Below, in pieces: positions 28,135 through 54,663 of a DNA stretch of 64,000 bases. Numbering within the stretch: position 1 is the stretch's first letter; the number at the start of each line of letters is the position of its first letter. The stretch comes from Candidatus Omnitrophota bacterium (lineage in GTDB: Bacteria > Omnitrophota > Gorgyraeia > Gygaellales > Profunditerraquicolaceae): the NCBI GenBank assembly GCA_028716965.1, contig JAQUOV010000004.1, positions 140,298-204,297 on the forward strand. The letters are read 5' to 3'. Made by a program: the position numbers and the translations under genes. The notes under the pieces are model-generated. The model was not told the DNA's origin. It did not search any database and saw nothing but the letters and a program-made list of their open reading frames with translations.

Positions 28135-29037
28135 GTGGTAGAAGAAAAGCTGCATATCCCAGTCATGTTGCGTGAAATTATAGATTATCTGGATCCAAAG
28201 CCCGGACAAATAATTGTAGATGCGACTCTCGGCACCGGCGGGCACGGATTTGAAATATTAAAAAAGATTGTTCCCGGCGGCCGGCTGGTGGGCATAGACC
28301 GTGATGAAGATTCGCTGGCTATTTGCCGTGAAAGGTTTAACGAATTTACCGGCAGCTACGAATTGGTGCATGCCAATTTTGTGGACCTGGATAAGGTCTT
28401 GGGGCATCTCGGCATAGGGCAGATAGGCGGGATACTGTTTGACCTGGGGATTTCTACGTATCAGCTTAAAGATGCAGAGAGGGGCTTTAGTTTCCAACAG
28501 GAAGGACCGCTGGATATGCGTTTGGATAAAAGCAGCTATATATCAGCCTATGATTTGGTGAATAACCTTAATGAAAACGAGATCTCCCATATGCTCTGGA
28601 GTTTTGGCCAGGAGCGCTGGCATAACCGCATCGCGCATTTGCTGGTTGAAGAACGCAGGAACCATCCTATTTCGACTACCAGTCAATTGGCGGATTTGGT
28701 GATGCGCGCTATTCCCTATAGATACCGCAGGAGTTATTATCGCATACATCCTGCTACGCGTACTTTTCAGGCCGTGCGTATTGCCGTAAACCGTGAATTG
28801 GAGATTTTGGAAAGCGCCATTAAAAAAGCAGTTGCAATCCTGGGGAAGAAAGCTAAGATATGTGTTATTTCTTTTCATTCATTAGAGGATCGGGTGGTAA
28901 AACATACGTTCCGTGCTCTTAAGGCTGACGGATTAATCGATATTATTACGGCAAAACCCATAACCCCTGCCGACGGGGAGGTAGAAGCCAACCCTTCCAG
29001 CCGCAGCAGTAAGCTCAGGGTAGCTGAAAGGATCTAG
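28135..29037 (+). CDS. rsmH: 16S rRNA (cytosine1402-N4)-methyltransferase RsmH
   Basis: HIPVML...GTGGH SAM-dependent methyltransferase motifs. Follows mraZ. Confidence 0.9.
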   Translation: MVEEKLHIPVMLREIIDYLDPKPGQIIVDATLGTGGHGFEILKKIVPGGRLVGIDRDEDSLAICRERFNEFTGSYELVHANFVDLDKVLGHLGIGQIGGILFDLGISTYQLKDAERGFSFQQEGPLDMRLDKSSYISAYDLVNNLNENEISHMLWSFGQERWHNRIAHLLVEERRNHPISTTSQLADLVMRAIPYRYRRSYYRIHPATRTFQAVRIAVNRELEILESAIKKAVAILGKKAKICVISFHSLEDRVVKHTFRALKADGLIDIITAKPITPADGEVEANPSSRSSKLRVAERI

Positions 29038-29042
29038 AGTAT

Positions 29043-29411
29043 ATGAAGATGACAAAATTTCTTTCCGTAACAATATTCGTTACTTCTTTTTGCGTACTTT
29101 ATGTTTATCAGCAGAGCGAGATTTTCCGCCTGGCCTACCTTGGCTCAAGAAGGCAGAATACTTATAATGAATTGTTTGATAAAAACACCGCCTTAAGTTA
29201 CAATATTAAGAAAAGTTCTTCTTTGGTAAATATCGGCAACCGGATAAGCCAGAGCCATGACTTCCAAATGCCGGACAAATACCGTTTTGTCAAGGTGGTG
29301 GCTTCTAAGGATGGGATTAAGCCGGTCAGTCAAAGCCAGGGCAGAGAAGGTTTACTGGCATCTATTTTTGGCCTGAAACAGGAAGCTCAAGCAAAGACAA
29401 TTAACCCCTAA
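29043..29411 (+). CDS. ftsL: Cell division protein FtsL-like
   Basis: 122 aa bitopic membrane protein between rsmH and ftsI. Confidence 0.6.
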   Translation: MKMTKFLSVTIFVTSFCVLYVYQQSEIFRLAYLGSRRQNTYNELFDKNTALSYNIKKSSSLVNIGNRISQSHDFQMPDKYRFVKVVASKDGIKPVSQSQGREGLLASIFGLKQEAQAKTINP

Positions 29412-29434
29412 TACTTATTATTCCTTAAAAAATA

Positions 29435-31138
29435 GTGTATATAAGCAACTATCGCCGAAGAAGCGAGGCGGTATTCCTGGTTTTCTTTATTTCTCTCCTG
29501 CTTTGCGTAGGGCGGCTTCTCTTCATCCAGTTTTTTCGTTCAAACTATTTATCTTCAATAGCCAGAAAACAGCATAACCAGTTTGTGGAATTAGAGCCCC
29601 GGCGCGGGACGATTTACGATTACAATCTCAAGGCGCAGGCATTTAATTTATCCATGGACTCCCTTTACGCCGAACCTAATGCCATTAAAGACGCAGACAA
29701 GGATAAGATAATAGAAAAGCTTTCGCCGATTATCGGCGCCGACAGTGATTACCTGCGGGAGAGGCTTTATCGCAAGAAAGCATTCATCTGGCTGGCGCGT
29801 AAGCTGACTGCGGATAAGTCCGAAGCAATAAGGGCGCTGAAGATCAAGGGGCTGGGATTTATAAAAGAGACTAAACGTATCTATCCTAACGGATATTTGG
29901 CCAGCCATATCATCGGCTTCAGCGGCATGGATAACGTAGGGCTGGAAGGCGTAGAAAGAGATTTTGATAATTACCTGAAAGGGGATGCCGGCTGGGCGAT
30001 CTTCCTGCGCGATGCCCGGCAAAAGAAACTGGATATCTGGGAAAAGATGGTTCTGCCCGTTGACGGCCTGGATTTAGTCTTGACCATTGATGAGGTTATC
30101 CAGTATATTGCCGAAAGGGAACTGGATAAGGCTTTTAAAAATTTTCATGCAAAAGGCGCCAGTATTATTGTGATGGACCCGCATACGGGAAGGATTCTGG
30201 CCATGGCCAGCCGGCCTAACTACGATTTAAATAATTATTCTTCCGTGAACAGGGAAGCTATGCGTAACCGCTCCATATGTGATTTGTTTGAACCCGGCTC
30301 GGTGTTTAAAATAGTTACCGCCTCTGCCGCGTTAGAAGAAAAAAAGGTTACAGAAGAAGATAAGATCTTTTGTGAAAATGGGGCTTACCGGGTAGGGGGG
30401 CACATCCTGCATGACCATCGGCCTCACGGCACGCTTACCTTCCGGCAGGTGATCGAAGAATCAAGTAATATCGGCACGGTAAAAGTCGCGCAGCTTTTGG
30501 GCCCGGATACGGTTTATCGGTATTTGAAGGATTTTGGTTTTGGTTCAAAGCTGGGTATTGATATTTCAGGCGAGATCTCGGGTATGATCAAGGCGCCCCG
30601 GGCATGGTCTAAGACCTCTATTTCAGCTATCCCCATCGGACAGGAGGTGGGGGTTACTGCTTTACAATTAGTCAGCGCAATCTCCGTAATCGCTAACGGC
30701 GGGCAACTGATGAGGCCGTATATTATTGATTCCATCCGTGATAAACAGGGCCGGGTAATTAAACAGAATAAACCGGTATTGATACGTAAAGTAATCTCAG
30801 TGGATACGGCAATGCGCATAAGAAAGATCCTTACCGGGGCTGTGGAAGAAGGGACCGGTAAGCTGGCTAAGGTTTCCGGGTTTAGCGCCGCCGGAAAAAC
30901 CGGTACCGCCCAGAAGCTTGAGCCAAACGGTACGTATTCACACAGTAAGTTTATCGCTTCCTTTATCGGTTTTGCTCCGGCGGAAGAACCTCTGCTGGCA
31001 ATTGTGGTGACAGTGGATGAGCCTTATCCGTATTATTTCGGCGGGGTAGTGGCAGCCCCGGTTTTCCAAAAAGTCGCAGGTGATGCCATCCGCTATATCA
31101 AAGGGAATGAAATACCTGTCGGGGTAATGGCACGATGA
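29435..31138 (+). CDS. ftsI: Peptidoglycan D,D-transpeptidase FtsI (PBP3)
   Basis: PBP dimerisation and transpeptidase domains with SxxK (SVFK), SxN and KTG(T) motifs. Confidence 0.9.
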   Translation: MYISNYRRRSEAVFLVFFISLLLCVGRLLFIQFFRSNYLSSIARKQHNQFVELEPRRGTIYDYNLKAQAFNLSMDSLYAEPNAIKDADKDKIIEKLSPIIGADSDYLRERLYRKKAFIWLARKLTADKSEAIRALKIKGLGFIKETKRIYPNGYLASHIIGFSGMDNVGLEGVERDFDNYLKGDAGWAIFLRDARQKKLDIWEKMVLPVDGLDLVLTIDEVIQYIAERELDKAFKNFHAKGASIIVMDPHTGRILAMASRPNYDLNNYSSVNREAMRNRSICDLFEPGSVFKIVTASAALEEKKVTEEDKIFCENGAYRVGGHILHDHRPHGTLTFRQVIEESSNIGTVKVAQLLGPDTVYRYLKDFGFGSKLGIDISGEISGMIKAPRAWSKTSISAIPIGQEVGVTALQLVSAISVIANGGQLMRPYIIDSIRDKQGRVIKQNKPVLIRKVISVDTAMRIRKILTGAVEEGTGKLAKVSGFSAAGKTGTAQKLEPNGTYSHSKFIASFIGFAPAEEPLLAIVVTVDEPYPYYFGGVVAAPVFQKVAGDAIRYIKGNEIPVGVMAR

Positions 31139-32550
31139 AGATCGCAGGCATGAAAATTAAAGGGATAAGTTGCAATTCTAAAGCCGTAAAAGATGATTTT
31201 GTCTTTGTGGCTATAAAAGGCAACCGCCTGGATGGCAGTTGTTATATTAAAGAAGCGCTGGCCAAAGGTGCAAGTGTAGTGGTCGCAGATGGGAAGATCC
31301 CAAGGATAAGAATACCTAAAGATGTAAAGCTGCTTGTGGTAAAAGATTGCCGTAAATTCCTGGCAGAGGCTTCTTCCGGATTCTATGGGCATCCTTCCGA
31401 TAGCCTTAAGGTTATCGGTATTACCGGCACTAACGGTAAGACAACCATCTCGTATTTAATCGAGGCCATAGCCGCTCAATCAGGGCATGGCTGCGGCGTA
31501 ATCGGCACGATTAATTACCGTTTTAAAGGCAGGGAGTTTTCCGCTAAGAATACAACGCCCGGACCGGTAGAGCTGCAGGAGCTGCTTGCAAAAATGCGTG
31601 CGCAGCGGACTAAGTACTGCGCGATGGAGGTTTCCTCGCATGCCCTGGACCAGGAAAGGGTTGCAGGTATAAATTTTAGCCACGCTGTTTTCACCAACCT
31701 TACCCAGGACCATCTGGATTACCATAAGAAGATGGAAAGTTATTTTCAGGCAAAGCTTAAGCTTTTTCGCAGCCTGCCCGAGTCAGGAGTTGCAATAATC
31801 AACAATGACGATAAATATGGCCGCAGGATCAAACAGTCAATCCGTTGCCGCCTGATAAGCTATGGAATAAAGAATAAGTCAACGGTTATGGCCAAAAAGA
31901 TAGATTCCGGGATAGAAGGGACTAATTTCTCCCTGGTTGCCCCGGGGATAAACACGAGGATTAAGACAAGGCTGATCGGTTTGTACAATGTTTATAATAT
32001 ACTGGCAGCTGTCTCCTGGGGTATAAGCGAAGGTTTACGCCTTAAAGATATTAAATCCGCAATTGATAAATTCAAGAATGTGCCTGGAAGGCTGGAGAGG
32101 CTTGAGAGTAAGGAAGGGTATAATATCTTTGTGGATTACGCGCATACGCCGGATGCGTTATTTAATGTTATCAGCGCCTTGAGGCCTTTAGTTGCGGGCA
32201 GGATGATTGTGATCTTTGGCTGCGGGGGAGAAAGGGATAAACTTAAGCGTCCGAAGATGGGGAAGATTGTAACAGGCCTTGCGGATTATGCCATTATTAC
32301 CAGCGATAACCCGCGCTCCGAAGAACCTTTGCGCATAATCAGCGATATCCGCGGCGGTATACGCAAGAATAATTATTGCGTAATTCCGGACAGATTTAAA
32401 GCCATAAAGACAGGTTTGAAAATGGTCAAAAGCGGCGATTGCCTGCTTATCGCCGGTAAAGGGCATGAAGAGTATCAGGTATTAAAAAACAGAATTTTAC
32501 ATTTTAGCGACAGGAAGGTAGTGCAAGAGTGTTTACGCTCAAAGAAATAA
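31135..32550 (+). CDS. murE: UDP-N-acetylmuramoyl-L-alanyl-D-glutamate--2,6-diaminopimelate ligase
   Basis: Mur ligase domains with GTNGKTT P-loop and a DNPR motif. Confidence 0.9.
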   Translation: MKIAGMKIKGISCNSKAVKDDFVFVAIKGNRLDGSCYIKEALAKGASVVVADGKIPRIRIPKDVKLLVVKDCRKFLAEASSGFYGHPSDSLKVIGITGTNGKTTISYLIEAIAAQSGHGCGVIGTINYRFKGREFSAKNTTPGPVELQELLAKMRAQRTKYCAMEVSSHALDQERVAGINFSHAVFTNLTQDHLDYHKKMESYFQAKLKLFRSLPESGVAIINNDDKYGRRIKQSIRCRLISYGIKNKSTVMAKKIDSGIEGTNFSLVAPGINTRIKTRLIGLYNVYNILAAVSWGISEGLRLKDIKSAIDKFKNVPGRLERLESKEGYNIFVDYAHTPDALFNVISALRPLVAGRMIVIFGCGGERDKLKRPKMGKIVTGLADYAIITSDNPRSEEPLRIISDIRGGIRKNNYCVIPDRFKAIKTGLKMVKSGDCLLIAGKGHEEYQVLKNRILHFSDRKVVQECLRSKK

Positions 32551-33890
32551 TTAAAGCCACGGAGGGCAAACTTATCCAGGGTAACCTGCAGGATAAGCCG
32601 GTAGGCATCTCCACTGATTCAAGGAGGATAAGTCCGAAGGAGGCGTTTTTGGCCCTGAAAGGGGATAATTATGATGGGCATAATTTTATTCCCGCAGCTC
32701 TAAAAGCAGGGGCAGTTTGCGTTATTGCCGAGAAGGTATCCGGTTTGCATGCCCCTAAGAATACAGCGCTTATCCGGGTAAAAGACACAGCTTTGGCCTT
32801 AGGCGACCTTGCCCGTTTCAGGCGGCAGGGATTCAGTAACCCGGTTATTGCCGTCTCCGGATCAAACGGTAAAACTACCACTAAAGATATGATCGCCTGG
32901 GTCCTGTCGGAAAATTACAGGGTATTGAAAAATGAAGGCACGCAAAATAACCAGGTCGGGCTGCCCCAGACATTAATCAAACTTAAGCAAGAGGATGATT
33001 TTGCGGTAGTTGAAATCGGCACCAACCATTTTGGAGAGGTAAATTATCTGGCCGAAATTGCCCGTGCGAATATCGGCATACTTACCAATATCGGGCCGTC
33101 TCACCTGGAATTCCTGAAGGATTTAAAAGGGGTATTAAAAGAAAAGTCGGACTTGTTAAATAACCTGGTTCATCCGGCAATAGCCCTGCTTAATAGCGAC
33201 GACCAATATCTGCGGGGTTTGATTAATCGTAAAAATAAGTGCCGGCATATGTTTAGCTATGGCACTAAAATGAAAAGCGATTTTTTCGCCACCGGCATTA
33301 GATTAGAGGAAGGGAGATTAAAGTTTAAGGTCAACCGGAAGAAGGATTTCGTATTATCTACGCTGGGCATGCACAATGTTTACAATGCCCTTGCCGCCAT
33401 TGCCGCCGGGCGCATACTCGGCCTGGGGCTGGGCGATATGGCCCGCAGGTTAGCGGATTTTGATTTTCCTAAAGGCAGGCTTAAACTTATTGAGGTTAAC
33501 GGGCTTAGATTTATAGACGATACTTATAATTCCAACCCGCTTTCTCTCAAGAATGCCCTTAATGCCCTGGGTGCCGTGGAGTGTAAAGGTAAAAAGATCC
33601 TGATTATGGGGGACATGCTTGAGTTGGGCAGGCAAAAAGAATTATTGCATAGGCAGGTTGCTGGTAGTATAACTAATATATGCGATGTGCTGGTTGCGGT
33701 GGGTAATTTAGCGGGGATAACTGCCCGCTCAGCCAAGGCGCGCGGTTTTAAAGGCCGGGATATATATTGTTGTGCTTCTCCCCGGCAGGCCCGCGAGCTG
33801 TTATTCCATAAGTTATCTGCCGGTTCAAAAGATATCATCCTGGTAAAAGGCTCCCGTTCGATGAAAATGGAAGAGGTTTTTAAAGTTTAA
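32529..33890 (+). CDS. murF: UDP-N-acetylmuramoyl-tripeptide--D-alanyl-D-alanine ligase
   Basis: Mur ligase family with GSNGKTTTK P-loop. Confidence 0.9.
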   Translation: MFTLKEIIKATEGKLIQGNLQDKPVGISTDSRRISPKEAFLALKGDNYDGHNFIPAALKAGAVCVIAEKVSGLHAPKNTALIRVKDTALALGDLARFRRQGFSNPVIAVSGSNGKTTTKDMIAWVLSENYRVLKNEGTQNNQVGLPQTLIKLKQEDDFAVVEIGTNHFGEVNYLAEIARANIGILTNIGPSHLEFLKDLKGVLKEKSDLLNNLVHPAIALLNSDDQYLRGLINRKNKCRHMFSYGTKMKSDFFATGIRLEEGRLKFKVNRKKDFVLSTLGMHNVYNALAAIAAGRILGLGLGDMARRLADFDFPKGRLKLIEVNGLRFIDDTYNSNPLSLKNALNALGAVECKGKKILIMGDMLELGRQKELLHRQVAGSITNICDVLVAVGNLAGITARSAKARGFKGRDIYCCASPRQARELLFHKLSAGSKDIILVKGSRSMKMEEVFKV

Positions 33891-34978
33891 TGTTTTACCA
33901 CCTGCTTTATCCTCTAAGAGATTTTATTTCCGCTTTTAATGTCTTCCGCTATATCACCTTCCGGGCGGCAATGGCCGCTTTAACCGCATTTATACTAAGC
34001 CTTATATTTGGGCCTGTGCTTATCAGGAAATTAAAAACACTTAAGCTCGGGGAGAAGATTAACAAGGCCGACAGCGTTAAGCTTGATGACCTGCACCGTC
34101 ATAAACAGAATACGCCGACGATGGGGGGGATCCTTATACTGGGTACGGTTATAATCTCAACCCTGCTTTGGGCAGATATTTCCAATCATTGCATCTGGAT
34201 TGTTTTATTCAGTACCGTCTGGCTGGGCTTAACCGGGTTCTTTGACGATTATTTAAAGCAGATAAAGAAGAAGGCAGACGGATTGCCGCCAATAGTAAAA
34301 CTCTCAAGCCAGATTATCTTAGGTTTGATACTGGGGATTATCCTTATTCTGGACAGCCAGTATAATGTCAAGCTGGAGATACCTTTTTTAAAGGCAGTTA
34401 ACCTGGATTTGGACGGTTTATATATCCTGTTTGTTATACTGGTGATCGCCGGTTCCTCCAATGCCGTAAATCTTACCGATGGGCTTGACGGCCTGGCTAT
34501 CGGTATTGTAGTGATGGTAGGTATTGCCTTCAGCGTGCTTTGTTACATATCCGGGAACATAAACTTAAGCAATTATCTATTGGTTTCTTACGTTAAAGGC
34601 GCCGGGGAGCTGACTATTTTCTGCGCAAGTATTATTGGTGCCGGCTTGGGTTTTTTATGGTTTAACTGTTACCCTGCCTCAGTCTTTATGGGGGATGTCG
34701 GATCACTGGCTTTAGGCGGGGCTATAGGCACGGTAGCCCTGTTGATTAAGAAAGAAATGCTGCTGATAATCGTAGGAGGTATATTTGTCCTGGAGGCATT
34801 CTCCGTTATCCTGCAGGTGGGTTGTTTTAAACTGACCAAGAAGCGTATTTTTAAAATTGCGCCATTACACCATCATTTCCAGTTTTTGGACTGGCCTGAA
34901 AATAAGGTAATCGTCAGGTTTTGGATTATCGCCGGATTGCTTGCCATGTTTACCTTAGTTACCCTGAAGCTCAGGTAG
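33890..34978 (+). CDS. mraY: Phospho-N-acetylmuramoyl-pentapeptide transferase
   Basis: Polytopic membrane protein with NAVNLTDGLDGLA and other MraY motifs. Confidence 0.95.
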   Translation: MFYHLLYPLRDFISAFNVFRYITFRAAMAALTAFILSLIFGPVLIRKLKTLKLGEKINKADSVKLDDLHRHKQNTPTMGGILILGTVIISTLLWADISNHCIWIVLFSTVWLGLTGFFDDYLKQIKKKADGLPPIVKLSSQIILGLILGIILILDSQYNVKLEIPFLKAVNLDLDGLYILFVILVIAGSSNAVNLTDGLDGLAIGIVVMVGIAFSVLCYISGNINLSNYLLVSYVKGAGELTIFCASIIGAGLGFLWFNCYPASVFMGDVGSLALGGAIGTVALLIKKEMLLIIVGGIFVLEAFSVILQVGCFKLTKKRIFKIAPLHHHFQFLDWPENKVIVRFWIIAGLLAMFTLVTLKLR

Positions 34979-34983
34979 GTTTT

Positions 34984-36261
34984 ATGAACAATACCAAATA
35001 CTTCAAAGGTAAGAATATTACTGTTGTGGGTTTGGCCCGCTCCGGCCTTGCCTGCGCTAATTTATTGCACAGCCTGGGCGCCTGCGTGCGAGTTACGGAT
35101 ATAAACGACAATACCCAAACCAGGGAGTCTGCCGCCGGGCTTTCTTCTAAAGGTATACCCGTTGAGCTTGGGTTGCACAGCGAGGATTTTATCAGGCAGG
35201 CGGAGCTGGTAGTCATTTCTCCCGGGGTGCCTCTTTGCGCGCAGCCGGTGATCTGGGCCAAGGAATTTTCCCGGCCGCTGATAAGTGAAATTGAGTTGGC
35301 AAGCATGCTTTGCCCGGCAGAGATTATTGCCGTAAGCGGTTCTAACGGGAAAACCACGGTCACCACTTTAATCGGCAAGGTCCTGGCGGAATCCGGGAAG
35401 AGGGTTTTTGTGTGCGGCAATATCGGCAACCCGTTTTGCGCGGAGGTAGAAAGAATTAAGCAGGGTGATTTTGTTGTACTTGAGGTAAGTTCGTTCCAGC
35501 TTGAGACGATCAGGGATTTTAAGCCGAAGATCGCAGTGATCCTGAATTTAACGCCCAATCATTTAGACCGCTATAATAATATGCAGGAGTACTTGAATGC
35601 GAAAAAGCGTATCTTTATTAACCAGGACGATAACGACTACCTGGTTTTAAACGCTGACGACCCTTTTTTAGATGCCGCTTCCCTTGGGGCCAAGTCAAAG
35701 ATTGTTTTCTTTAATAAAACAGGGGCCTTCAATCCAAATCAGAACGCGGTAATGGCAGTGGGCAAAATCTTAGGGGTTAAAGCGGAAGATATGCTTGGCG
35801 TTTTTCAGAAGTTCAAAGGTATCCAGCACCGTATGGAGGAGGTAGCGCAGATAAACGGCGTAAGATTTATTAATGATTCCAAGGCCACTACCGCGGATTC
35901 GGCGATCTGGGCGATCAAGAATATTGCCTCCCCCATAATTCTTATAGCCGGAGGCAGGCATAAAGGGATCGCTTACAGCGTGATACTGGAAGCGGCAAGG
36001 AATAAGGTTAAAAAGGCGTTTTTGATCGGCGAGGCCAGGGATATAATTGCCGCTGCTCTTGAGGCAGATTTACCGGTAGAGAAAACAGACAATTTAAATA
36101 TAGCCGTAAAGAAGGCTTATGAACAGGCTGCGCCGGGAGACTGCGTGTTATTCTCTCCCATGTGCTCAAGTTATGATATGTTCAAGGATTATGCGCAGCG
36201 GGGAGAGGCTTTCAAAAAAATGGTATTGGATTTAAGTAAAGGGGCCAGGCCGCATGATTAG
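34984..36261 (+). CDS. murD: UDP-N-acetylmuramoylalanine--D-glutamate ligase
   Basis: GLARSG Rossmann motif and GSNGKTT P-loop. Start placed at the ATG (MNNTKYF) within the longer ORF 34921..36261. Confidence 0.9.
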   Translation: MNNTKYFKGKNITVVGLARSGLACANLLHSLGACVRVTDINDNTQTRESAAGLSSKGIPVELGLHSEDFIRQAELVVISPGVPLCAQPVIWAKEFSRPLISEIELASMLCPAEIIAVSGSNGKTTVTTLIGKVLAESGKRVFVCGNIGNPFCAEVERIKQGDFVVLEVSSFQLETIRDFKPKIAVILNLTPNHLDRYNNMQEYLNAKKRIFINQDDNDYLVLNADDPFLDAASLGAKSKIVFFNKTGAFNPNQNAVMAVGKILGVKAEDMLGVFQKFKGIQHRMEEVAQINGVRFINDSKATTADSAIWAIKNIASPIILIAGGRHKGIAYSVILEAARNKVKKAFLIGEARDIIAAALEADLPVEKTDNLNIAVKKAYEQAAPGDCVLFSPMCSSYDMFKDYAQRGEAFKKMVLDLSKGARPHD

Positions 36262-37348
36262 GAGGACACGCATAAATTTGATTACTATCTCAACCGTGCT
36301 TGTCTGTGTTGGGATAGTAATGATTTACAGTTCTTCCAGTATTTATGCCTGGGAGAGATACGGAGACAGTTTTTATTTCCTGAAGCGGCATTTAGCCTTC
36401 CTGGTGGTAGGGTTGGTATTTACATTTCTGGCGATGGTCATTGACTACCGCTTATTCCGCAGGCACGCCCGCCTCATGTTCTGGGTTGCTTTCGCCTTGC
36501 TGGTATTAGTGCTTATCCCGGGATTGGGCAGGGAGGTCTCGGGCGCAAGGCGCTGGTTCAGGTTTAAATTCATCAGTTTTCAGCCTTCAGAATTTGCTAA
36601 TTTGGCGCTGGTTATTTATATAGCTGATTTTGTCTGCCGGAAAGGGGAACAGATTAAGACGCTGTTTAAAGGTTTTATCCCGCCGATATGCGCGCTGGGG
36701 TCAGTCTCTTTGCTCATACTCTTGCAGCCGGATTTGGGCACGACTATTGCTTTGGGCAGCGTAGTCCTGATTATGCTTTATATCGCCGGCGTAAGGGTGC
36801 AGTATATTTTAAGCCTGATACTCTGCAGCCTGCCGATGGTTTATCTCTTGATTTTCAGCGTGCCTTACCGCCGGGCCAGGATCCTGGCATTTCTAAACCC
36901 GTGGCTTGACCCTAAAGGCAGCGGTTTCCAGATCATCCAATCGCAAATTGCCATCGGTTCAGGCGGTTTATTCGGAGTAGGATTGGGCCATTCCCAGCAG
37001 AAGCTTTTTTATCTCCCCGCCGCGCATACCGATTTTATTTTCTCAATTATCGGCGAAGAGCTCGGCTTGTTCGGCACTCTTGGGATAATTGCGTTGTTTA
37101 TGATTTTTATCCGCCAGGGGCTTAGGATTATGAAAAACGCCCAGGATAAATTTGGATATTTTCTTGCCCTGGGGCTGGTTTTGATGATTTCTCTTAAGGC
37201 GATCGTCAATATCGGCGTCTCCTGCGGGGTTTTTCCGACTAAGGGGCTGCCTCTGCCGTTTATCAGCTACGGAGGTTCTTCGCTGATATTTGACATGGTC
37301 AGCTTAGGCATATTGATTAACATCGCCCGTTCCGGAGAATACCCATAA
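36254..37348 (+). CDS. ftsW: Peptidoglycan glycosyltransferase FtsW (SEDS family)
   Basis: Polytopic SEDS protein within the dcw cluster. Confidence 0.85.
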   Translation: MIRRTRINLITISTVLVCVGIVMIYSSSSIYAWERYGDSFYFLKRHLAFLVVGLVFTFLAMVIDYRLFRRHARLMFWVAFALLVLVLIPGLGREVSGARRWFRFKFISFQPSEFANLALVIYIADFVCRKGEQIKTLFKGFIPPICALGSVSLLILLQPDLGTTIALGSVVLIMLYIAGVRVQYILSLILCSLPMVYLLIFSVPYRRARILAFLNPWLDPKGSGFQIIQSQIAIGSGGLFGVGLGHSQQKLFYLPAAHTDFIFSIIGEELGLFGTLGIIALFMIFIRQGLRIMKNAQDKFGYFLALGLVLMISLKAIVNIGVSCGVFPTKGLPLPFISYGGSSLIFDMVSLGILINIARSGEYP

Positions 37349-38427
37349 TGCGTGTTTTACTGGTTACCGGCTCAAGCGGAGGGCATATCTTCCCCGCAAT
37401 GGCTTTAATGGAGCGCCTTAAGGCTGCTTGTGCCGATGTGCTGATGGTCTTGCCAAAAAAGAATAGCGGGAGTAAAATTGCAAGCGGACCGGAAAAGGTA
37501 AAATATATCCACGGCTCCAAGTTGGGTTTAAAATCAGGCAGCAAGAATATAATCGGCGCGTATTTTTTCCTTTTGGGGGCCTGGGAAGGCTTGCGCGCTA
37601 TAATTGCATTCAGGCCAGATGTTGTCGTTGGTTTCGGCAGCTTAGATACGGTTGCTTTGTTGTTTTGGGCATGGCTATTCAGGATAAAGACCGTAATCCA
37701 CGAACAGAATGTCTCACCCGGCAGGGCAAACCGGCTATTGGCTAAATTTGCGGACAAGGTGGCGGTATCATTTGCTCAAACGGGCGATTATTTCAATGTT
37801 TCTCCGGGGAAGATTGTTTTAACCGGTAATCCTCTGCGTAAAGGATTAGTCAGGACAGACAGGAAGCAGGCCCTGGATTTCTTTGGTTTCAAAGAAGGAA
37901 AATTTAACATACTGGTTATGGGCGGCAGCCAGGGCTCGCATAAATTAAATACTGTTTGTTCTGCGGCGCTATCTGGTTATCAGAAAAGAGATGATTTGCA
38001 GCTGGTGCATATTGCCGGGGATATGGACTTTGCGATGTTAAAACAGGCTTATGCGCAAGCCGGCATCGCGCATAAAGTTTTCAGTTTCTTCCCTGATATG
38101 CAGTATGCTTACAGTATGGCGGACCTGGTAATCTGCCGCGCGGGAGCGACCACGATTGCCGAGCTGGGGAGATTCGCAGTGCCTGCTTTATTAATCCCGT
38201 ACCCTTATGCCTACGCGCATCAGTTAGAAAACGCAAAGGTGCTTGAGGAGTCGGGTGCAGCTTTGATTGTCAGGGATGAGGAACTGTGCGTTGATAAAAT
38301 AGGATGCAGCATACGTAAGCTTATGGCTGAGCCCCAGAAATTAGAAGCCATGCGCCAGGCACATTCCCGCGCACAGCTTAAAGACGCCGCTTGCCTGCTT
38401 GCCGAGGAAGTCTTAAATTTGAATTGA
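37348..38427 (+). CDS. murG: UDP-N-acetylglucosamine--N-acetylmuramyl-(pentapeptide) pyrophosphoryl-undecaprenol N-acetylglucosamine transferase
   Basis: GT28 family with GGSxG and GGS glycine motifs. Confidence 0.9.
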   Translation: MRVLLVTGSSGGHIFPAMALMERLKAACADVLMVLPKKNSGSKIASGPEKVKYIHGSKLGLKSGSKNIIGAYFFLLGAWEGLRAIIAFRPDVVVGFGSLDTVALLFWAWLFRIKTVIHEQNVSPGRANRLLAKFADKVAVSFAQTGDYFNVSPGKIVLTGNPLRKGLVRTDRKQALDFFGFKEGKFNILVMGGSQGSHKLNTVCSAALSGYQKRDDLQLVHIAGDMDFAMLKQAYAQAGIAHKVFSFFPDMQYAYSMADLVICRAGATTIAELGRFAVPALLIPYPYAYAHQLENAKVLEESGAALIVRDEELCVDKIGCSIRKLMAEPQKLEAMRQAHSRAQLKDAACLLAEEVLNLN

Positions 38428-39200
38428 TGATAAACTGCTTGAGGTTACTGTTTATATTTTTGTTTTTGCCGCTGTCTCTTTTGGCAGAGGAGCAGCCCTG
38501 GCAGGTCTTTAAAAGCACGCATTTCCTTGTTTTTTATAAAGGCGCTAAAGAACCCCAGCTTAATGAGTTAACCGAAAGGGCCGAGGAGTATTATAATAAG
38601 ATTACCGATGATCTGGGTTTTGCCCGTTTTAACTTCTGGACCTGGGATGACCGGGCAAAGATATATTTGTCCGACAGCCAGGAAGAATACAGACAGTTGA
38701 CCGGCGACCCGGACTGGTCTGCGGGACATGCCCAGGCAGGCAGCAAACTTATCTATACATTTATTACTGCCCCGGGGTTCCTGGATAATGTCCTCGCCCA
38801 TGAAATGGCGCATATTATTTTCAGGGAGATGGTGGGATTTAATAACCCCGCTGTACCGCTTTGGCTTGATGAAGGGGTTGCATCCTTCCAGGAAAAAAAG
38901 TTCTCTTTTGTTAAGGCGGATTTAGCTGATAGAATAAGGCAGGGTGATTTCTTAAGCCTGGAAGACCTGGGTAAAGTTGATGTGGCCAATTTAACAGAGA
39001 CAGGCAGGGCAGAGTTGTTTTATGCGGAGTCATTCAGCCTGGTGCGGTATTTAATTGATACATTCGGCAAAGACAGGTTCGTACTTTTTTGCCAGAACCT
39101 GCGGGACTATAAAGACCTGCGCAGGGCTTTAGCGCTTACATATTCTTTTGGCAGCCTGGCGGAGTTTGAAAGCTCCTGGAAAAAATATATTCTTCAATGA
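38427..39200 (+). CDS. Secreted HExxH zinc-metallopeptidase-like protein (hypothetical) inserted in the dcw cluster
   Basis: Signal peptide (MINCLRLLFIFLFLPLSLLA) and HEMAH (HExxH) motif. No recognisable family otherwise. Start chosen at the internal ATG of ORF 38391..39200. Confidence 0.5.
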   Translation: MINCLRLLFIFLFLPLSLLAEEQPWQVFKSTHFLVFYKGAKEPQLNELTERAEEYYNKITDDLGFARFNFWTWDDRAKIYLSDSQEEYRQLTGDPDWSAGHAQAGSKLIYTFITAPGFLDNVLAHEMAHIIFREMVGFNNPAVPLWLDEGVASFQEKKFSFVKADLADRIRQGDFLSLEDLGKVDVANLTETGRAELFYAESFSLVRYLIDTFGKDRFVLFCQNLRDYKDLRRALALTYSFGSLAEFESSWKKYILQ

Positions 39201-40555
39201 ACGGATACTACCATTTCATAGGGATCGGCGGGATAGGGATGAGCGGGGTGGCGCACCTGATGCTTAAGGCGGGGGTCCCGGTCAGCGGTTCGGATTTGAA
39301 GCAGAGCCGGGTTACCGAGGAGCTCAAAAGGCTTGGCGCCAGGATATATATCGGCCATAATGCTGAAAATATAGACGGCCAAAGCGCCGTAGTTTATTCT
39401 TCAGCGATAAAAGAGGATAACCCCGAGATACTCCAAGCCAGGATCATGGGTATCCCGCTGCTTAAGAGGGCAGAGGCCCTGGCTTTGCTTATGCGCCAGA
39501 AGACCGCTATAGCTGTTGCCGGCAGCCATGGCAAGACTACTACCGCTTCGTTGATCTCTTATATGCTGCTTGAGGCAGGGCTTTGCCCGACGGCAGCCAT
39601 CGGCGGGATACTCAAGAATATTGATACCAACGCCTGTTTGGGCAGCGGCGAGTTTTTCGTAGCGGAGGCAGACGAATCAGACGGCTCATTCCTATGTTAT
39701 CAGCCCAAGTACTCCGTAATTACCAATATTGATTACGAGCATATGGATTATTACCATAATCTTGAGAATGAATTAAATGCTTTCAAGAATTTTCTAAAAT
39801 GCACTCAGCCGGGAGGCTGCGTTTTTGCCTGTTCAGACGACTCCAACCTTAAGGGGTTGTTTTCGGATTATAAAGAAAGAGTTGTTTTCTTCGGCTTGAA
39901 TGAACCTGCCGATATATGCGCCAGGAATATTGAACTTCGCGGTCTTACTTCGGACTTTGACTGTTATTCCAAAGGCAAATTTATCTGCCGGTTTCATCTG
40001 GCCCTGGGAGGAAGGCACAATATTTCTAATGCCCTGGCGGTTATCGGCCTGGGCCTTGAGCTGGGTATTGATTTAGCGCATATCCGCAGGACTTTGGAAG
40101 GATACAAAGGCGCAGGCCGCAGGCTGGAGATAAAATTTAAAAACGATAAATACCTGGTCCTGGATGATTACGCGCACCACCCCTCGGAAATAAAAGCCAC
40201 CCTGGCGGCGGTGGCTAATTTAAATGCCGGGCGCTTGATCGTAGTGTTCCAGCCGCACCGTTATAGCCGCACGCAGCTGCTTTTAAATGATTTTGCAGGT
40301 TCTTTTGAGCATGCCGATTACCTGATTGTTACGGATATTTATGCTGCCAGCGAGAAGCCGATAGACGGCATAGACGCTGCGGCATTGTTAAAAAAGATAA
40401 AGCAATACCAGCCTAAGAAGCAGGCGGTATATATGGATAAAGAAGCAATAACGGAGTTTCTTCTGCGTTTTATGCAAAGCGGCGACCTGGTAATTACTTT
40501 AGGCGCCGGGGATATCGTGAGGACCGCCGATGTTTTGGCCGAAAAGCTTAAATAA
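39197..40555 (+). CDS. murC: UDP-N-acetylmuramate--L-alanine ligase
   Basis: IGIGGIGMSG and GSHGKTTT Mur ligase motifs. Confidence 0.95.
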   Translation: MNGYYHFIGIGGIGMSGVAHLMLKAGVPVSGSDLKQSRVTEELKRLGARIYIGHNAENIDGQSAVVYSSAIKEDNPEILQARIMGIPLLKRAEALALLMRQKTAIAVAGSHGKTTTASLISYMLLEAGLCPTAAIGGILKNIDTNACLGSGEFFVAEADESDGSFLCYQPKYSVITNIDYEHMDYYHNLENELNAFKNFLKCTQPGGCVFACSDDSNLKGLFSDYKERVVFFGLNEPADICARNIELRGLTSDFDCYSKGKFICRFHLALGGRHNISNALAVIGLGLELGIDLAHIRRTLEGYKGAGRRLEIKFKNDKYLVLDDYAHHPSEIKATLAAVANLNAGRLIVVFQPHRYSRTQLLLNDFAGSFEHADYLIVTDIYAASEKPIDGIDAAALLKKIKQYQPKKQAVYMDKEAITEFLLRFMQSGDLVITLGAGDIVRTADVLAEKLK

Positions 40556-41411
40556 AAGAATAAAAACCGGAATAAAACTGGCCGCTTTAACAAGCTTTAA
40601 AGTCGGAGGCGCGGCAAAGTTTTTCTTTGAGGCGGAGAATATTAAAGAATTGCAGGAGGTATTGATTTTCGCCGGGCGCGCGGGGATCCCGGTCTTTATA
40701 TTAGGCGCAGGCAGTAATATTTTAGTCAGCGATGCGGGATTGGACGCTTTAGTGATCAAGCTGGGAGGAGAATTCTCAAAAATATTGTATAAGGATGGAA
40801 CTTGCCTGGAAGCAGGAGGCGCCGTTAAGCTAAGCCAGCTTATTTTGGGCGCAAAAGCCAATGGTTTATCCGGTCTGGAGTTTCTTGCGGGGATCCCCGG
40901 TACATTGGGAGGGGCCCTGGCAGGCAATGCCGGTTCCTGGGGCAGGTCAATAGGCTCTTTTGTGCAAGAGGTGCGCGTTTTAGATTACAGCGGTAAGCCC
41001 AGGTCCTTTAATACAAAGAAACTGAAGTTTTCGTATCGCAAGTCAAACTTGAATAAATATATTATCATCTCCTCCAGGCTTAAATTGCGCAAGGCAGATA
41101 AAGATGCGATTGCTTCAAAGATCAGAAAATACCTTTCAGCGAAGAAAAGGGCCCAGGGGGATAGCCTGCCCAGCGCAGGGTGTATTTTCAAGAATCCCGG
41201 GAAGCATCCTGCCGGAAAACTTATTGATGCCTGCGGTTTAAAAGGGGGCGCAAAAGGCGGGGCAGTGATCTCTAAAGCCCACGCGAATTTTATCCTGAAT
41301 AAAGGAAGGGCTTCCAGCGGGGATATCCAGTTTCTCATGCACTTGATGCAAAAAAAAGTGAAAGAAAAATTCAAAATTGATTTGCAGCCTGAAATAATAA
41401 TATGGAGATGA
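40530..41411 (+). CDS. murB: UDP-N-acetylenolpyruvoylglucosamine reductase
   Basis: FAD-binding domain with the GGGSN motif and a MurB C-terminal domain. Confidence 0.85.
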   Translation: MFWPKSLNKRIKTGIKLAALTSFKVGGAAKFFFEAENIKELQEVLIFAGRAGIPVFILGAGSNILVSDAGLDALVIKLGGEFSKILYKDGTCLEAGGAVKLSQLILGAKANGLSGLEFLAGIPGTLGGALAGNAGSWGRSIGSFVQEVRVLDYSGKPRSFNTKKLKFSYRKSNLNKYIIISSRLKLRKADKDAIASKIRKYLSAKKRAQGDSLPSAGCIFKNPGKHPAGKLIDACGLKGGAKGGAVISKAHANFILNKGRASSGDIQFLMHLMQKKVKEKFKIDLQPEIIIWR

Positions 41412-42346
41412 AAGAGTTCGGCAGGGTAGGGGTTTTAATGGGCGGCCCTTCTTCGGAGAGGGAGATATCCTTTAAAAGCGGCAAGGCAGTTTTATCGGCG
41501 CTTAGGGATTCGGGGGTAGAAGCGGCGGGTATTGATATTGTCACCGATAATAGAGAAGATAATATTCGCCTGCTGGATAGTTATAATCTGGACTGCGCCT
41601 TTATCGCCCTGCACGGACGCTTTGGCGAGGATGGCGCTATCCAGGAGATCTTGGAGCAGCTAAACTTACCTTATACCGGCTCCGGGGTAAATGCCAGCCG
41701 CCTGGCCATGGATAAGATAGGGGCATTAAGGATTTTTGAGGCGGGCAAGCTTTATGTACCCAGGTCACAATCCCTGGGAAGATCAGCTTATAATAAAAAC
41801 AAGGATTTTAAAAACGAGCTGGGATTCCCGCTTGTGGTAAAGCCGGCCAACCACGGTTCCAGTATCGGTCTTTCAATTGTGGAGTTTGAAGAAGCGATGC
41901 CGGCGGCTATAAGCCTGGCTTTCCAGTTTGATGAACGGATAGTTATTGAAGAATATATCCCGGGCAGGGAATTGACGGTCGGCGTTTTAGATGAAACGGC
42001 CCTTCCGGTAATTGAGATTGTGCCTAAACATAAATTCTTTGATTTTGAAGCAAAGTACCAGGCAGGGCTGACGGATTATATCGTCCCGGCTGCTTTGGAT
42101 GAAAAGGCTGCCCGTAAGGTTCAGCAGGCAGCCTTGGAGGCACATAAGCTTTTAGGCTGTTTCGGCTGTTCGCGCACGGATATCATATTAAGCAGGGATA
42201 ACCTGTCTTATGTGCTGGAGACCAATACCATACCCGGGATGACCTCCACCAGCCTGCTGCCTAAAGCCGCCAGGATCATAGGTATTGATTTTAACCGGTT
42301 GTGCCTTAAACTATTGGAATTAGCTTATGAAAAAGAAAAAGTTTAA
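41402..42346 (+). CDS. ddl: D-alanine--D-alanine ligase
   Basis: ATP-grasp fold with Ddl N- and C-terminal motifs. Confidence 0.9.
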   Translation: MEMKEFGRVGVLMGGPSSEREISFKSGKAVLSALRDSGVEAAGIDIVTDNREDNIRLLDSYNLDCAFIALHGRFGEDGAIQEILEQLNLPYTGSGVNASRLAMDKIGALRIFEAGKLYVPRSQSLGRSAYNKNKDFKNELGFPLVVKPANHGSSIGLSIVEFEEAMPAAISLAFQFDERIVIEEYIPGRELTVGVLDETALPVIEIVPKHKFFDFEAKYQAGLTDYIVPAALDEKAARKVQQAALEAHKLLGCFGCSRTDIILSRDNLSYVLETNTIPGMTSTSLLPKAARIIGIDFNRLCLKLLELAYEKEKV

Positions 42347-43115
42347 ATTGCCCCTGGCCGCTATTTTTATCCCGGTAATAATTTTACTTGCCATCTCTTT
42401 ATTATTGGGATATATTTGGAAAGTCTTGACTACCTCTGATTTTTTTTCGGTCAAACAGGTCTTTGTCAGGAATTCCGCTGAATCATTTGAGTATTTAAAA
42501 GGCAGGAACATGTTTGACCTGGAACTGAATAATGAATCGGCAAAGGCTTTATCGCATTGCCCGGATTGCCATAGGGTAAGGTTTTTAAGGATACTGCCGA
42601 ATTACCTGATTGTAGATTTTGTAAAGAGGCAGCCGGTTGCTCTGGTTAAATTTTATAAAAACTACGCCGTAGACCAGCAGGGGGTATTTTTTAACCCTAC
42701 AGGTTCTGAAGAAGAGGCGGCTTTACCCGTAATTTATGGCCTGGAGACAAAAATATTCGGGCCAAAACCGGGAGTAAAATATAACCGGCCGGAGCTTGAT
42801 TTAGCCTTGAATATCATTAAAGATTTTAAGGCGAATAGAGCATTGCGCACTTTTACCCTGAAGAGAATCGATGTCTCAAGCCTGCAGAGCGCGGGATTAT
42901 TCGTGCTCTTGCCTAAACAGGCTGTTGATTATACCAAGCGCATCCCGCAGGTGGAGTGGCTGGGTTTTGAGGTGCGTATCGGAGAAGGCAATATTAAGCA
43001 GAAGCTGATGATTTTAGGCGGCTTGCTTATGCAGCCGGATAAAGAGTGGGTAAATATCAAATATATCGACCTTAGGTTTAACGAACCGGTGATAAAACTG
43101 GACAATAAGAATTGA
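42327..43115 (+). CDS. ftsQ: Cell division protein FtsQ (POTRA domain)
   Basis: Bitopic membrane protein between ddl and ftsA. Confidence 0.7.
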   Translation: MKKKKFKLPLAAIFIPVIILLAISLLLGYIWKVLTTSDFFSVKQVFVRNSAESFEYLKGRNMFDLELNNESAKALSHCPDCHRVRFLRILPNYLIVDFVKRQPVALVKFYKNYAVDQQGVFFNPTGSEEEAALPVIYGLETKIFGPKPGVKYNRPELDLALNIIKDFKANRALRTFTLKRIDVSSLQSAGLFVLLPKQAVDYTKRIPQVEWLGFEVRIGEGNIKQKLMILGGLLMQPDKEWVNIKYIDLRFNEPVIKLDNKN

Positions 43116-43157
43116 CCTGCGGGAAAAGTTTACCGGTAAACAGCGGACAAGAAAATA

Positions 43158-44414
43158 ATGTTGAATAATAACTATATATGCGCGGTAGATATCGGTTCAA
43201 ATAAAATTGCAGCCAGCCTTGCGCAGATAAGAAAAAACCGCATAGAGAATATTTTTTTTGATACTATTCTTTCCGGCGGCGTTAAAGAAGGGGTGATTGT
43301 TGACGCGCTGGAGTTGATCTCCTGCCTGAGCAAGGTCCTGAAGAGCTTAAAGGCTAAATCCGGTTTAAAAATTAAATTTATCCATACTAATTTCTCAGGC
43401 AAGGGGATATCCACCAGGCACAGCCACGCAATTATCCCTTTGGCAGAAAGAGGAAACAAGGTAATTACCTCTACGGATATAGCTAATGCCAATGAGCAGG
43501 CGCGAATCCTCGGTTCAAGCCTGGAGGAGGAGATTATACATGTAATTCCGTCCAGCTATTCCATTGATTCCAAGAATAATGTAATCAACCCTGTTGGCCT
43601 ATATAGCCATAAGCTGGAGGCGGATTTATTCCTGATCTGTGCCAAGCTTTCTTCTTTACAAAGCTTAAGCCGCGCTGTCAGCCAGGCAGGGTATGAGATA
43701 AGGGACCTTTCTTTTTCCGGGCTGGCGACAAGCAAAGCGGTTTTTGGTAAAGAAGAAAAAAAAGGGTTAAGCGTATTTTGCGATATCGGCAGCGATATCA
43801 CGGACCTGCTTATTTTTAAAGACGGGCTGTTGCAGGATATACAGGTCCTGCCGTTAGGCGGCAATAGCTTGACGCTCCAGCTTTCTGAAGGCCTGAAGAT
43901 CAATTGTGAACTGGCCGAGGACATTAAGCGCTCCTATGGAGTTATCGGCGATGCCGGTACTATCCCCGAAGACAAAGAAATACTGGTGAAGAAAGATGAA
44001 TTTTACAAGCCCATAAAATACAGGCATGTGGCCCAAATGGCTACTGATTCCAGCCGCTTAATCTGCACGCAGATCAAGGAGGTCGTGGAGAAAAAGGTCG
44101 CGCTTCATGAAATTGACCATTTCGTGATGGCCGGCAGGACCCTGTTGAGCGACGGCTTCATTGAGATGATGGAGAATGTAATGGGTATACAGGTAAAGAT
44201 CGGCCGTATCCGCAACGCGCAGGTCTCCTCTTTATTAAAGGAGCACAGCGAGTTGTCCGGTCAGAAATATCTGACCTATTTGACCTGTATCGGCATGGCC
44301 TGCGAAGACCTGGAGAATAAAACCGTAGGAAGCGCCTCTTTAGTCAGGCCTGCCCAAAACCTGCTGGCCAGGTTAATAAACCGTTTTAAAGAAGTTTACC
44401 AGGAATATTTCTAA
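43158..44414 (+). CDS. ftsA: Cell division protein FtsA
   Basis: Actin/ASKHA fold (VDIGSNKI...DIGSDITDL). Confidence 0.9.
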   Translation: MLNNNYICAVDIGSNKIAASLAQIRKNRIENIFFDTILSGGVKEGVIVDALELISCLSKVLKSLKAKSGLKIKFIHTNFSGKGISTRHSHAIIPLAERGNKVITSTDIANANEQARILGSSLEEEIIHVIPSSYSIDSKNNVINPVGLYSHKLEADLFLICAKLSSLQSLSRAVSQAGYEIRDLSFSGLATSKAVFGKEEKKGLSVFCDIGSDITDLLIFKDGLLQDIQVLPLGGNSLTLQLSEGLKINCELAEDIKRSYGVIGDAGTIPEDKEILVKKDEFYKPIKYRHVAQMATDSSRLICTQIKEVVEKKVALHEIDHFVMAGRTLLSDGFIEMMENVMGIQVKIGRIRNAQVSSLLKEHSELSGQKYLTYLTCIGMACEDLENKTVGSASLVRPAQNLLARLINRFKEVYQEYF

Positions 44415-44482
44415 AAATTAGGGGGTGCTCCTATTTCTTTTGAATCTTAATGATGAAGGAATAGAAGCGCCCCCTAATTCCA

Positions 44483-44511: not shown

Positions 44512-44525
44512 ACATACTTTAGCTT

Positions 44526-45176: not shown

Positions 45177-45181
45177 GGTAT

Positions 45182-54654: not shown

Positions 54655-54663
54655 ACATATTAT

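Follow-up and report, generated by a model that had tools for sequence, protein, structure and literature searches.

The window analysed here is a 64,000-nucleotide stretch from a Candidatus Omnitrophota bacterium that carries a complete dcw cluster on the + strand (27697..44414). Pfam matches, open reading frames and translations give the order mraZ-rsmH-ftsL-ftsI-murE-murF-mraY-murD-ftsW-murG-X-murC-murB-ddl-ftsQ-ftsA. The order of dcw genes is among the most conserved in bacteria and is strongly constrained. The window keeps the standard order from mraZ to ftsA, but it differs from the canonical cluster in having an extra gene for a putatively exported peptidase, called X here, between murG and murC, and in having no ftsZ after ftsA. 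Past ftsA the array runs on into unrelated genes, yggS-like, proC and ileS among them, along with PNP, lspA and lgt, and nearly all of the window genes shown lie tightly packed on one strand.

Gene X (38427..39200, + strand) encodes a 257-aa protein of the Peptidase_MA_2 (gluzincin) family, and its frame reads as 257 codons from an ATG at 38427-38429 to a TGA at 39198-39200. The upstream murG gene (37348..38427, + strand) ends with a TGA at 38425-38427 and shares one base with the start of X, forming a TGATG junction at 38425-38429. The downstream murC gene (39197..40555, + strand) starts with an ATG at 39197-39199, which overlaps the stop of X by four bases as ATGA (39197-39200). These junctions bear out an earlier note made on this DNA, which had described a 257-aa frame that overlaps the end of murG and whose stop overlaps the start of murC. 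In a program-made list of open reading frames X begins instead with a TTG at 38391, which would give 269 aa. Two observations favour the ATG at 38427: 29 orthologues have N-termini that align to within one residue of this position, and in most other loci the possible start codon closest to the end of murG (as a rule an ATG) falls between -8 and +10 nt from the murG stop. Among the other loci where murC can be seen, about two-thirds allow the same 4-nt overlap. The same note had presented translational coupling as a notable feature; the overlaps are real, but they are nothing special in this window, where 22 of 51 adjacent + strand pairs overlap and 9 more are separated by gaps of 10 nt or less. 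Since overlap is routine in this genome, overlap alone shows no functional link. That X is a real gene and not a chance reading frame follows from its Pfam match (E 6e-17), its 458 homologues at E<=1e-3 in a set of 5.8 billion proteins, its GC content, which is the same as that of the neighbouring genes, and its dN/dS of 0.09-0.21, a range that matches murG and indicates purifying selection.

The X protein begins with MINCLRLLFIFLFLPLSLLA/EEQ, a stretch that resembles a Sec signal peptide and has small residues ahead of the predicted cut. The predicted signal peptide covers residues 1-20 (38427..38486, + strand), with cleavage expected after LLA. This hydrophobic N-terminus is conserved: 30 aligned orthologues give the consensus ...LFLPxxVFA/Q, in which P15 and A20 are nearly invariant, and the AlphaFold2 model of X places a low-confidence helix at residues 2-19. 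The signal peptide proposed in the earlier note is thus found in Sec-type form across the orthologues, and X would be exported by the Sec system and its signal peptide removed. One relative of X is fused to a thioredoxin-like domain, an arrangement that was counted toward a periplasmic location. Attachment as a lipoprotein was rejected; the sole early cysteine is residue 4, which lies before the hydrophobic core and is unconserved among orthologues.

X had been described as having no family similarity beyond its HExxH motif, which is wrong. Its hidden Markov model score places X fully within Pfam PF13485, Peptidase_MA_2, a family of the clan MA gluzincins (62.5 bits against a cut-off of 32.4, E 6.3e-17), and NCBI records already name the protein "peptidase MA family metallohydrolase." All 50 diverse members of the X family that were examined match PF13485, with which X has in common the HExxH motif, the downstream glutamate and a thermolysin-like fold. 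PF13485 is defined by sequence only, and the fixed murG-X-murC slot characterises one Omnitrophota clade and not PF13485 at large. At E<=1 the only other Pfam matches of X are to M1, DUF6055 and SprT-like families. A search of the literature under PF13485, peptidase MA, Omnitrophota dcw and T2SS found no description of the function of the family or of the murG-X-murC arrangement, and among the searchable sources there was no characterised PF13485 member or assigned substrate and no mention of the insertion in work on dcw clusters or Omnitrophota.

The AlphaFold2 model of X (pLDDT 88.5, pTM 0.82) shows a five-strand sheet, a helix bearing HExxH, a second helix bearing the glutamate and a C-terminal helical bundle, which together form a two-subdomain, thermolysin-like gluzincin fold. 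Where the earlier note had suggested looking for an M48, M78 or DUF fold, structure prediction and Foldseek recover the gluzincin fold with the catalytic domains of M9 and M1 enzymes as the nearest solved structures, each at a Foldseek probability of 1.00. A search of the PDB with the single X sequence gave no match; a profile built from the orthologues matches the M1 enzyme 3cia (E 2e-4), and HExxH, WLxEG and a tyrosine line up.

The HEMAH zinc-binding and catalytic motif (residues 125-129; 38799..38813, + strand) supplies H125, E126 and H129. After an interval of 19 residues comes E149, within an LWLDEGVA helix (38859..38882, + strand), which aligns in the profile comparison with the WLNEG glutamate of M1 aminopeptidases at a one-residue difference in length and is the predicted third zinc ligand. 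Two orthologues read EA for EG here and keep the glutamate. Y199, in FYxES (39021..39023, + strand), is a candidate for the tyrosine that stabilises the transition state; it aligns with the tyrosine of 'vpYvkG' in the cold-active M1 aminopeptidase 3cia, which we take to be the M1 catalytic tyrosine from LTA4H-type M1 enzymes. All five residues (H125, E126, H129, E149 and Y199) are invariant both in 30 aligned orthologues and in a family-wide alignment that covers every type of gene context. The motif noticed in the earlier reading also holds up across homologues, with HExxH present in 265 of the 269 family proteins collected and in all 34 of the dcw-context sequences, which likewise all keep the glutamate ligand and the tyrosine. 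Among the four proteins that lack HExxH, at least one (P0232) is apparently truncated. From this conservation X would be a catalytically active enzyme.

Comparison with characterised gluzincins narrows the kind of peptidase that X may be. The M1 aminopeptidases (aminopeptidase N, leukotriene A4 hydrolase and 3cia), which with leukotriene A4 hydrolase (LTA4H) rank next after the collagenases in Foldseek, have the same core site of HExxH, WLxEG glutamate and tyrosine. They also carry the GxMEN exopeptidase motif, which is absent from X and was found in none of 90 family sequences, and their spacing from histidine to glutamate is one residue shorter. X is a single domain of 257 aa, without the N-terminal beta domain and the C-terminal helical domain of the M1 enzymes, and its score against PF01433 is 18.1 bits, below the cut-off of 27.7. 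Membership among the M1 aminopeptidases was rejected on the missing GxMEN, the PF01433 score and the single domain; these features, together with the longer spacing, make X probably an endopeptidase and not an aminopeptidase.

The best structural matches are the peptidase domains of the clostridial and Vibrio M9 collagenases (ColG, ColH, ColT and the Vibrio enzymes), which cover nearly the whole length of X with E values from 3.6e-7 to 2e-5 and TM scores of 0.55-0.63. Identity to these enzymes is only 12-16%, and X has no M9 Pfam match at E<=1. X also lacks their activator, PKD and collagen-binding domains and is half as large as their peptidase domain. Flagellinolysin (NF033876) gives a weak local match to the zinc-binding region of X (32 bits, E 8.5e-8), a score far under the cut-off of 205, and X has no flagellin domains. 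A role in anti-phage defence was also considered and dropped, as PADLOC returned no match for X or for its two sister types.

The association with dcw genes that the earlier note drew from this one locus extends to orthologues. X adjoins murG and/or murC in 34 other loci, wherever the contig reaches those flanks, and murG lies directly upstream in each of the others whose contig extends far enough; these loci were collected through X itself, so that the sample covers only clusters that hold X. Across them the identity of X runs from 79 to 32% and that of MraY from 93 to 50%, and at the deep end MurG identity is only 29-36%. The loci include Omnitrophica WOR_2, and all named matches are labelled Omnitrophota or Omnitrophica except one (L010), labelled 'uncultured Planctomycetales bacterium.' In a neighbor-joining tree without support values the dcw-context sequences form one clade. 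One member of this clade, L063, has aroE and a prepilin peptidase gene downstream, not murC. Median identity is similar for X (48%), MurG (44%) and MurB (47%). Recent horizontal insertion of X was rejected, given that its GC content equals that of its neighbours and that the clade diverges in step with the genes on either side.

The nearest sister clades are found in a T2SS-like/ATP-synthase gene cluster and not in dcw clusters. Some of their genes sit between gspF and gspG, others upstream of atp genes that are fused to the T2SS-like operon, and genes for giant proteins adjoin some copies. With such contexts the Peptidase_MA_2 family has no general tie to division. No contig name or length is common to the dcw-type and T2SS-type lists. 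Distant relatives occur in still other settings, beside a rhomboid protease and an S49/NfeD protein, beside DUF885, beside an oligopeptide-binding protein and an amidase, and in one case beside a MipA-like (MltA-interacting) protein, so that relatives of X occupy several unrelated gene contexts. All of these neighbours apart from the MipA-like protein were counted in favour of a protein or peptide substrate.

Taken with the fold and the conserved position, these attributes lead to a preferred reading, held tentatively at a little under even confidence, in which X is an active periplasmic zinc endopeptidase that became fixed in the dcw operon and cuts an envelope- or division-linked polypeptide of L-amino acids. 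Under this scheme X would consist only of a gluzincin catalytic domain, exported by the Sec system into the periplasm, with an M1-like active site made up of HExxH, a glutamate 20 residues past the second histidine, and a tyrosine. Its gene would have entered the slot between murG and murC a single time, early in Candidatus Omnitrophota, and been inherited vertically since then as a co-transcribed member of the dcw cluster, usually with overlapping start and stop codons. If X is co-transcribed with the dcw genes, it would therefore be made together with the machinery for Lipid II and septal peptidoglycan. The enzyme may then process or turn over a periplasm-exposed protein or peptide of the envelope or divisome, and not the D-amino-acid cross-links of peptidoglycan. 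The preference for an ordinary protein or peptide substrate over peptidoglycan is drawn by analogy, solely from the usual activity of the fold. Escherichia coli BepA (M48) is an exported metallopeptidase with HExxH and glutamate ligands that acts on periplasmic envelope proteins; it has a TPR domain, and its gene lies outside the dcw cluster. BepA offers a functional analogy for the role proposed for X from a different family and fold subclass, and the searches run here found no sequence or structure match between the two.

The earlier note had proposed a periplasmic metallopeptidase associated with peptidoglycan or division. The part that stands is a putatively exported HExxH metallopeptidase within the dcw operon, whereas the peptidoglycan or division role was read from gene position only. 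An enzyme that acts on the wall itself, as an endopeptidase or carboxypeptidase trimming stem peptides or cross-links during wall insertion or septum splitting, with T2SS-linked relatives that open gaps in the wall, would fit the predicted periplasmic location and the place of X between two genes of Lipid II synthesis in the 34 other loci. It would also fit the sister clades, which sit inside a trans-envelope T2SS-like machine that must cross the wall, and the distant relatives beside the MipA-like protein or beside the oligopeptide-binding protein and amidase. We consider this reading unlikely, since X matches none of the known peptidoglycan hydrolase families at E<=1 in Pfam (M23, M15, M14, NlpC/P60 and amidase_2/3), no peptidoglycan-binding domain (LysM, SPOR or PG_binding) was detected in it by Pfam, and its nearest folds, M9 and M1, cut the L-peptide bonds of proteins and peptides. 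We know of no peptidoglycan hydrolase with the fold of X, a fold whose known activity is on ordinary peptides and proteins.

A role with no specific link to the wall or to division is given a similarly low probability. X could be a housekeeping periplasmic peptidase that rides a co-directional array for steady expression, as might be expected from the packed one-strand genome with its many overlapping pairs, the continuation of the array beyond ftsA, the unrelated contexts of the relatives, and L063, which breaks the dcw position. Against such a passenger, X stays in precisely the murG-murC interval down to 50% identity in MraY and 29-36% in MurG, the dcw-context sequences form a single clade in the neighbor-joining tree, and dcw gene order is otherwise strongly constrained. 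A distinctly improbable alternative is that X and its relatives are exoproteases that reach the periplasm and then leave through a T2SS-like system to attack host or prey surfaces. The top structural matches of X are secreted collagenases, sister clades lie inside the T2SS-like operon or beside giant-protein genes, and the giant genes of Omnitrophota and nearby T2SS-like loci have been tied to predation (bioRxiv 10.1101/2023.11.21.568195). This reading leaves the fixation of the dcw copy between murG and murC unexplained; moreover, X-type proteins are small single domains without adhesion or targeting modules, and secreted substrates are not usually encoded between gspF (platform) and gspG (pseudopilin). 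Finally, very little credence is given to X as a non-catalytic scaffold or binding protein that retains the fold of a peptidase. The few family proteins without HExxH are the nearest thing to support, and at least one of them, P0232, appears truncated. The two histidines, catalytic glutamate, glutamate ligand and tyrosine are invariant in the dcw-context sequences and also in the sister clades, which is the pattern of an active enzyme.

Its place between murG and murC makes X, a putatively exported zinc peptidase from the known Peptidase_MA_2 family, a promising candidate for a protease of the envelope or of division that is as yet unstudied. That a deeply diverged phylum keeps such a peptidase at one dcw position suggests that its joint production with the wall and division machinery has been selected for. 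If the substrate of X is peptidoglycan or a divisome protein, X would represent a new enzyme class in bacterial cell division; if X is a mere passenger gene, it amounts to a routine, already annotated peptidase found somewhere unexpected. Omnitrophota are ultra-small and host-dependent, and the first of these outcomes would give a handle on how their walls are built and split. A broader proposal, which we regard as speculative and somewhat doubtful, is that Omnitrophota possess a family of small gluzincin peptidases of the periplasm, each paralogue having been built into the operon of a different envelope machine (murG-X-murC in the divisome and Lipid II operon, gspF-X'-gspG or a site upstream of atp in a T2SS-like/ATP-synthase supercluster) and dedicated to processing or remodelling for that machine. 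On this view X itself would be a new protease of the divisome or else a peptidoglycan peptidase of a structurally new class, and division in this phylum would need it. The sister copies in T2SS-like operons provide a natural comparison for the dcw copy, and one 20-kb view (L103), which contains no dcw cluster, holds a copy upstream of the ATP-synthase genes along with a T2SS operon that has no copy between gspF and gspG.

The division and cell wall (dcw) gene cluster of the window is complete and runs mraZ–rsmH–ftsL–ftsI–murE–murF–mraY–murD–ftsW–murG–X–murC–murB–ddl–ftsQ–ftsA, where X is a 257-aa protein with an HExxH motif. All three genes around the insertion lie on the + strand. murG (37348-38427) ends with a TGA at 38425-38427, X (38427-39200) reads from an ATG at 38427 through 257 codons to a TGA at 39198-39200, and murC starts with an ATG at 39197, giving the junctions TGATG and ATGA. 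These frames, read from the window, bear out the position that an earlier note had assigned to X. A mechanical ORF list offers a TTG at 38391 as an alternative start. The ATG is preferred because the N-termini of 29 aligned orthologues match it to within one residue and because of the spacing to murG; most of the remaining loci have their candidate start closest to the murG stop, usually an ATG, at -8 to +10 nt from that stop. The N-terminus, MINCLRLLFIFLFLPLSLLA/EEQ, resembles a Sec signal peptide, a form common to the orthologues (consensus LFLPxxVFA/Q). X is very probably exported, and the form of its N-terminus suggests that the signal peptide is cleaved.

The named close homologues of X all come from Candidatus Omnitrophota/Omnitrophica except one (L010), labeled "uncultured Planctomycetales bacterium." The murG–X–murC arrangement is kept in 11 of 11 genome loci, on one ENA and one JGI contig (L013 and L022, with X relatives 42-47% identical), and in 21 further loci from a metagenome scan. 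The dcw neighborhood of X therefore recurs in 34 loci besides the window (murG–X and/or X–murC), every one of them retrieved via X itself, so that the sample is blind to dcw clusters without X. Almost everywhere X starts only a few bases from the end of murG, and about two thirds of the loci showing murC allow a 4-nt overlap of its start with the X stop; gaps of 114-338 nt are found in L043 and L047. Across the 34 loci, identity to the window falls as low as 32% for X, 50% for MraY, and 29% for MurG, and the most divergent subgroup, which includes OGW95818.1 from "Omnitrophica WOR_2 bacterium GWA2_45_18," is also from Omnitrophota. A neighbor-joining tree of 90 sequences, drawn without support values, places all dcw-context sequences within one clade. 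The remaining members of this clade are two sequences on contigs too short to show flanks (L014 and L037) and the sole exception seen, L063, where aroE and a prepilin peptidase gene come after X in place of murC. There is good support for X having become a fixed part of the dcw operon early in the history of Omnitrophota.

Several loci show local variation. In L063 (158-2667) the aroE and prepilin peptidase-like genes were identified by eye from sequence, and the contig lacks the upstream flank. Members of the divergent WOR_2-like subgroup (L036, L050, L051, and L065) have ddl directly after murC, without an intervening murB. L051 also carries a gspF-like gene (5-1195, 29% identity) 2.6 kb upstream of ftsW, in the place expected for mraY and murD.

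Purifying selection on X is well supported. Median identity to the window across the dcw loci is 48% for X, 44% for MurG, 47% for MurB, 60% for MurC, and 37% for FtsQ, and 18 of 23 paired comparisons show X to be better conserved than MurG. For eight close pairs, dN/dS is 0.09-0.21 for X versus 0.10-0.20 for murG, and the GC content of X is that of the flanking genes. These values mark X as a long-standing gene of the cluster under constraint rather than a recent insertion. A passenger role in a long gene array is a serious alternative, given that 22 of the window's 51 pairs of neighboring genes overlap and that the array continues into unrelated housekeeping genes, although the depth of the positional conservation speaks against it.

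X is a well-supported member of a known gluzincin family. The earlier note had found no family similarity beyond the zinc-binding motif, which was mistaken: X matches Pfam PF13485 (Peptidase_MA_2) at 62.5 bits against a cut-off of 32.4 (E 6e-17), with below-threshold matches to Peptidase_M1 (Pfam) and flagellinolysin. An AlphaFold2 model built from an alignment of 30 orthologues (mean pLDDT 88.5, pTM 0.82) has a five-strand sheet, the HExxH helix (118-136), a helix carrying E149 (145-154), and a C-terminal helical bundle. Its nearest relatives in the PDB by Foldseek are the peptidase domains of M9 collagenases (best 4ar9, E 3.6e-7; query-normalised TM 0.55-0.63), with M1 aminopeptidases and leukotriene A4 hydrolase (LTA4H) next. 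The orthologue profile also matches the cold-active M1 aminopeptidase 3cia (E 2e-4). The HExxH motif and the WLxEG glutamate superpose, X having one extra residue, and in the profile alignment the "vpYvkG" tyrosine of 3cia, which we take to be the transition-state tyrosine of LTA4H-type M1 enzymes, aligns with the tyrosine of FYxES in X.

The sequences give good support for a complete and conserved active site. H125, E126, and H129 of the HEMAH motif (residues 125-129, nt 38799-38813, + strand), E149, and Y199 do not vary in 30 aligned orthologues or in a 50-sequence alignment spanning all genomic contexts. These predicted catalytic residues, including the HExxH and its putative downstream ligand, are retained in 34 of 34 dcw-context sequences; in two of these EA replaces EG and the glutamate is kept. 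M1 enzymes owe their exopeptidase activity to a GxMEN motif, and none of the 90 sequences examined contains it. The absence of accessory domains beside the single catalytic domain of X suggests an endopeptidase with an open cleft.

The favored substrate would be a polypeptide tied to the envelope or the divisome, because enzymes that share the fold and catalytic residues of X cut ordinary peptide bonds and because distant relatives adjoin membrane-protein proteases and peptide-handling genes. The more interesting reading is that X is a peptidoglycan peptidase, and the dcw position of X and the type II secretion (T2SS) position of its relatives both fit local wall remodeling. It is the less probable of the two: by Pfam, X has neither similarity to peptidoglycan hydrolase families nor a wall-binding domain, which likewise favors a polypeptide. 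The neighbors of the more distant relatives are scattered, comprising a rhomboid protease with an S49/NfeD protein, an oligopeptide-binding protein with an amidase, a MipA-like protein with DUF885, a directly downstream Fer4_16 iron–sulphur protein (L015), a 2-oxoacid dehydrogenase E2 subunit, and a radical-SAM protein with NAPRTase. One family member (P0197) has a fused C-terminal thioredoxin-like domain and the JGI name thiol-disulfide isomerase. Another (P0124), in which an unrelated tail of 216 residues follows the N-terminal 160 residues of the family, is possibly a chimera or frameshift.

The family is large: searching 1.84 billion representative proteins with a profile yielded 213 matches at E<=1e-30 and 7370 at E<=1e-3. 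Relatives at 30-44% identity, nearly all from Omnitrophota where the source organism is named, occupy two more conserved positions. In 16 Omnitrophota loci (L012, L017-L020, L023-L028, L031, L033, L039, L042, and L067; 33-45% identity to X), the peptidase gene separates gspF from gspG in a T2SS-like operon located directly after atpG–atpD, usually with spacing as tight as in dcw. In the same supercluster, it is also found upstream of the ATP synthase genes (L053, L055, L059, L060, L061, L066, and L103), with a giant ORF before it (>1500 aa; in one locus >4067 aa) and a response-regulator/GGDEF gene after it. These positions may be alternatives, because in L103, the one 20-kb view of the ATP-upstream type, gspG directly follows gspF with no peptidase between. 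The ATP synthase and T2SS-like operons of L103 are interleaved, as atpC (ATP synthase epsilon) is found between gspE and gspF (15195-19839). The neighbor-joining tree joins the dcw and ATP-upstream clades as sisters and leaves the T2SS clade outside the pair.

The family is already known and the gene already annotated; NCBI holds a protein identical to X, named "peptidase MA family metallohydrolase." The murG–X–murC arrangement and the T2SS-linked sister clades were not found in a PVC dcw survey (PMC12283558), in Omnitrophota genome papers (PMC10066038; bioRxiv 10.64898/2026.06.07.730766), in a giant-gene/T2SS paper (bioRxiv 10.1101/2023.11.21.568195), or in literature searched by family name. 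The new element is a dcw cluster, in uncultured bacteria, with an integral gluzincin that is predicted to be exported.

The dcw cluster of the window ends at ftsA, and ftsZ is not next (43158-46021); a YggS-like PLP protein (44526-45176), proC, and a PNP-family phosphorylase follow. The tubulin signature GGGTG[ST]G is absent from every frame of the 64-kb window; the genome may carry ftsZ at another site. On the same strand, 9 kb downstream of the dcw cluster, are murA, mreB, mreC, mreD, PBP2, and rodA (53341-60075), which together with it form a large cell-wall gene region. A 282-aa ORF at 52496-53344 has a weak FlgT_C match (31 bits). At 61965-62372, a short stretch like the N-terminal MshEN domain of GspE adjoins a response-regulator/HD-domain gene (62418-63488).
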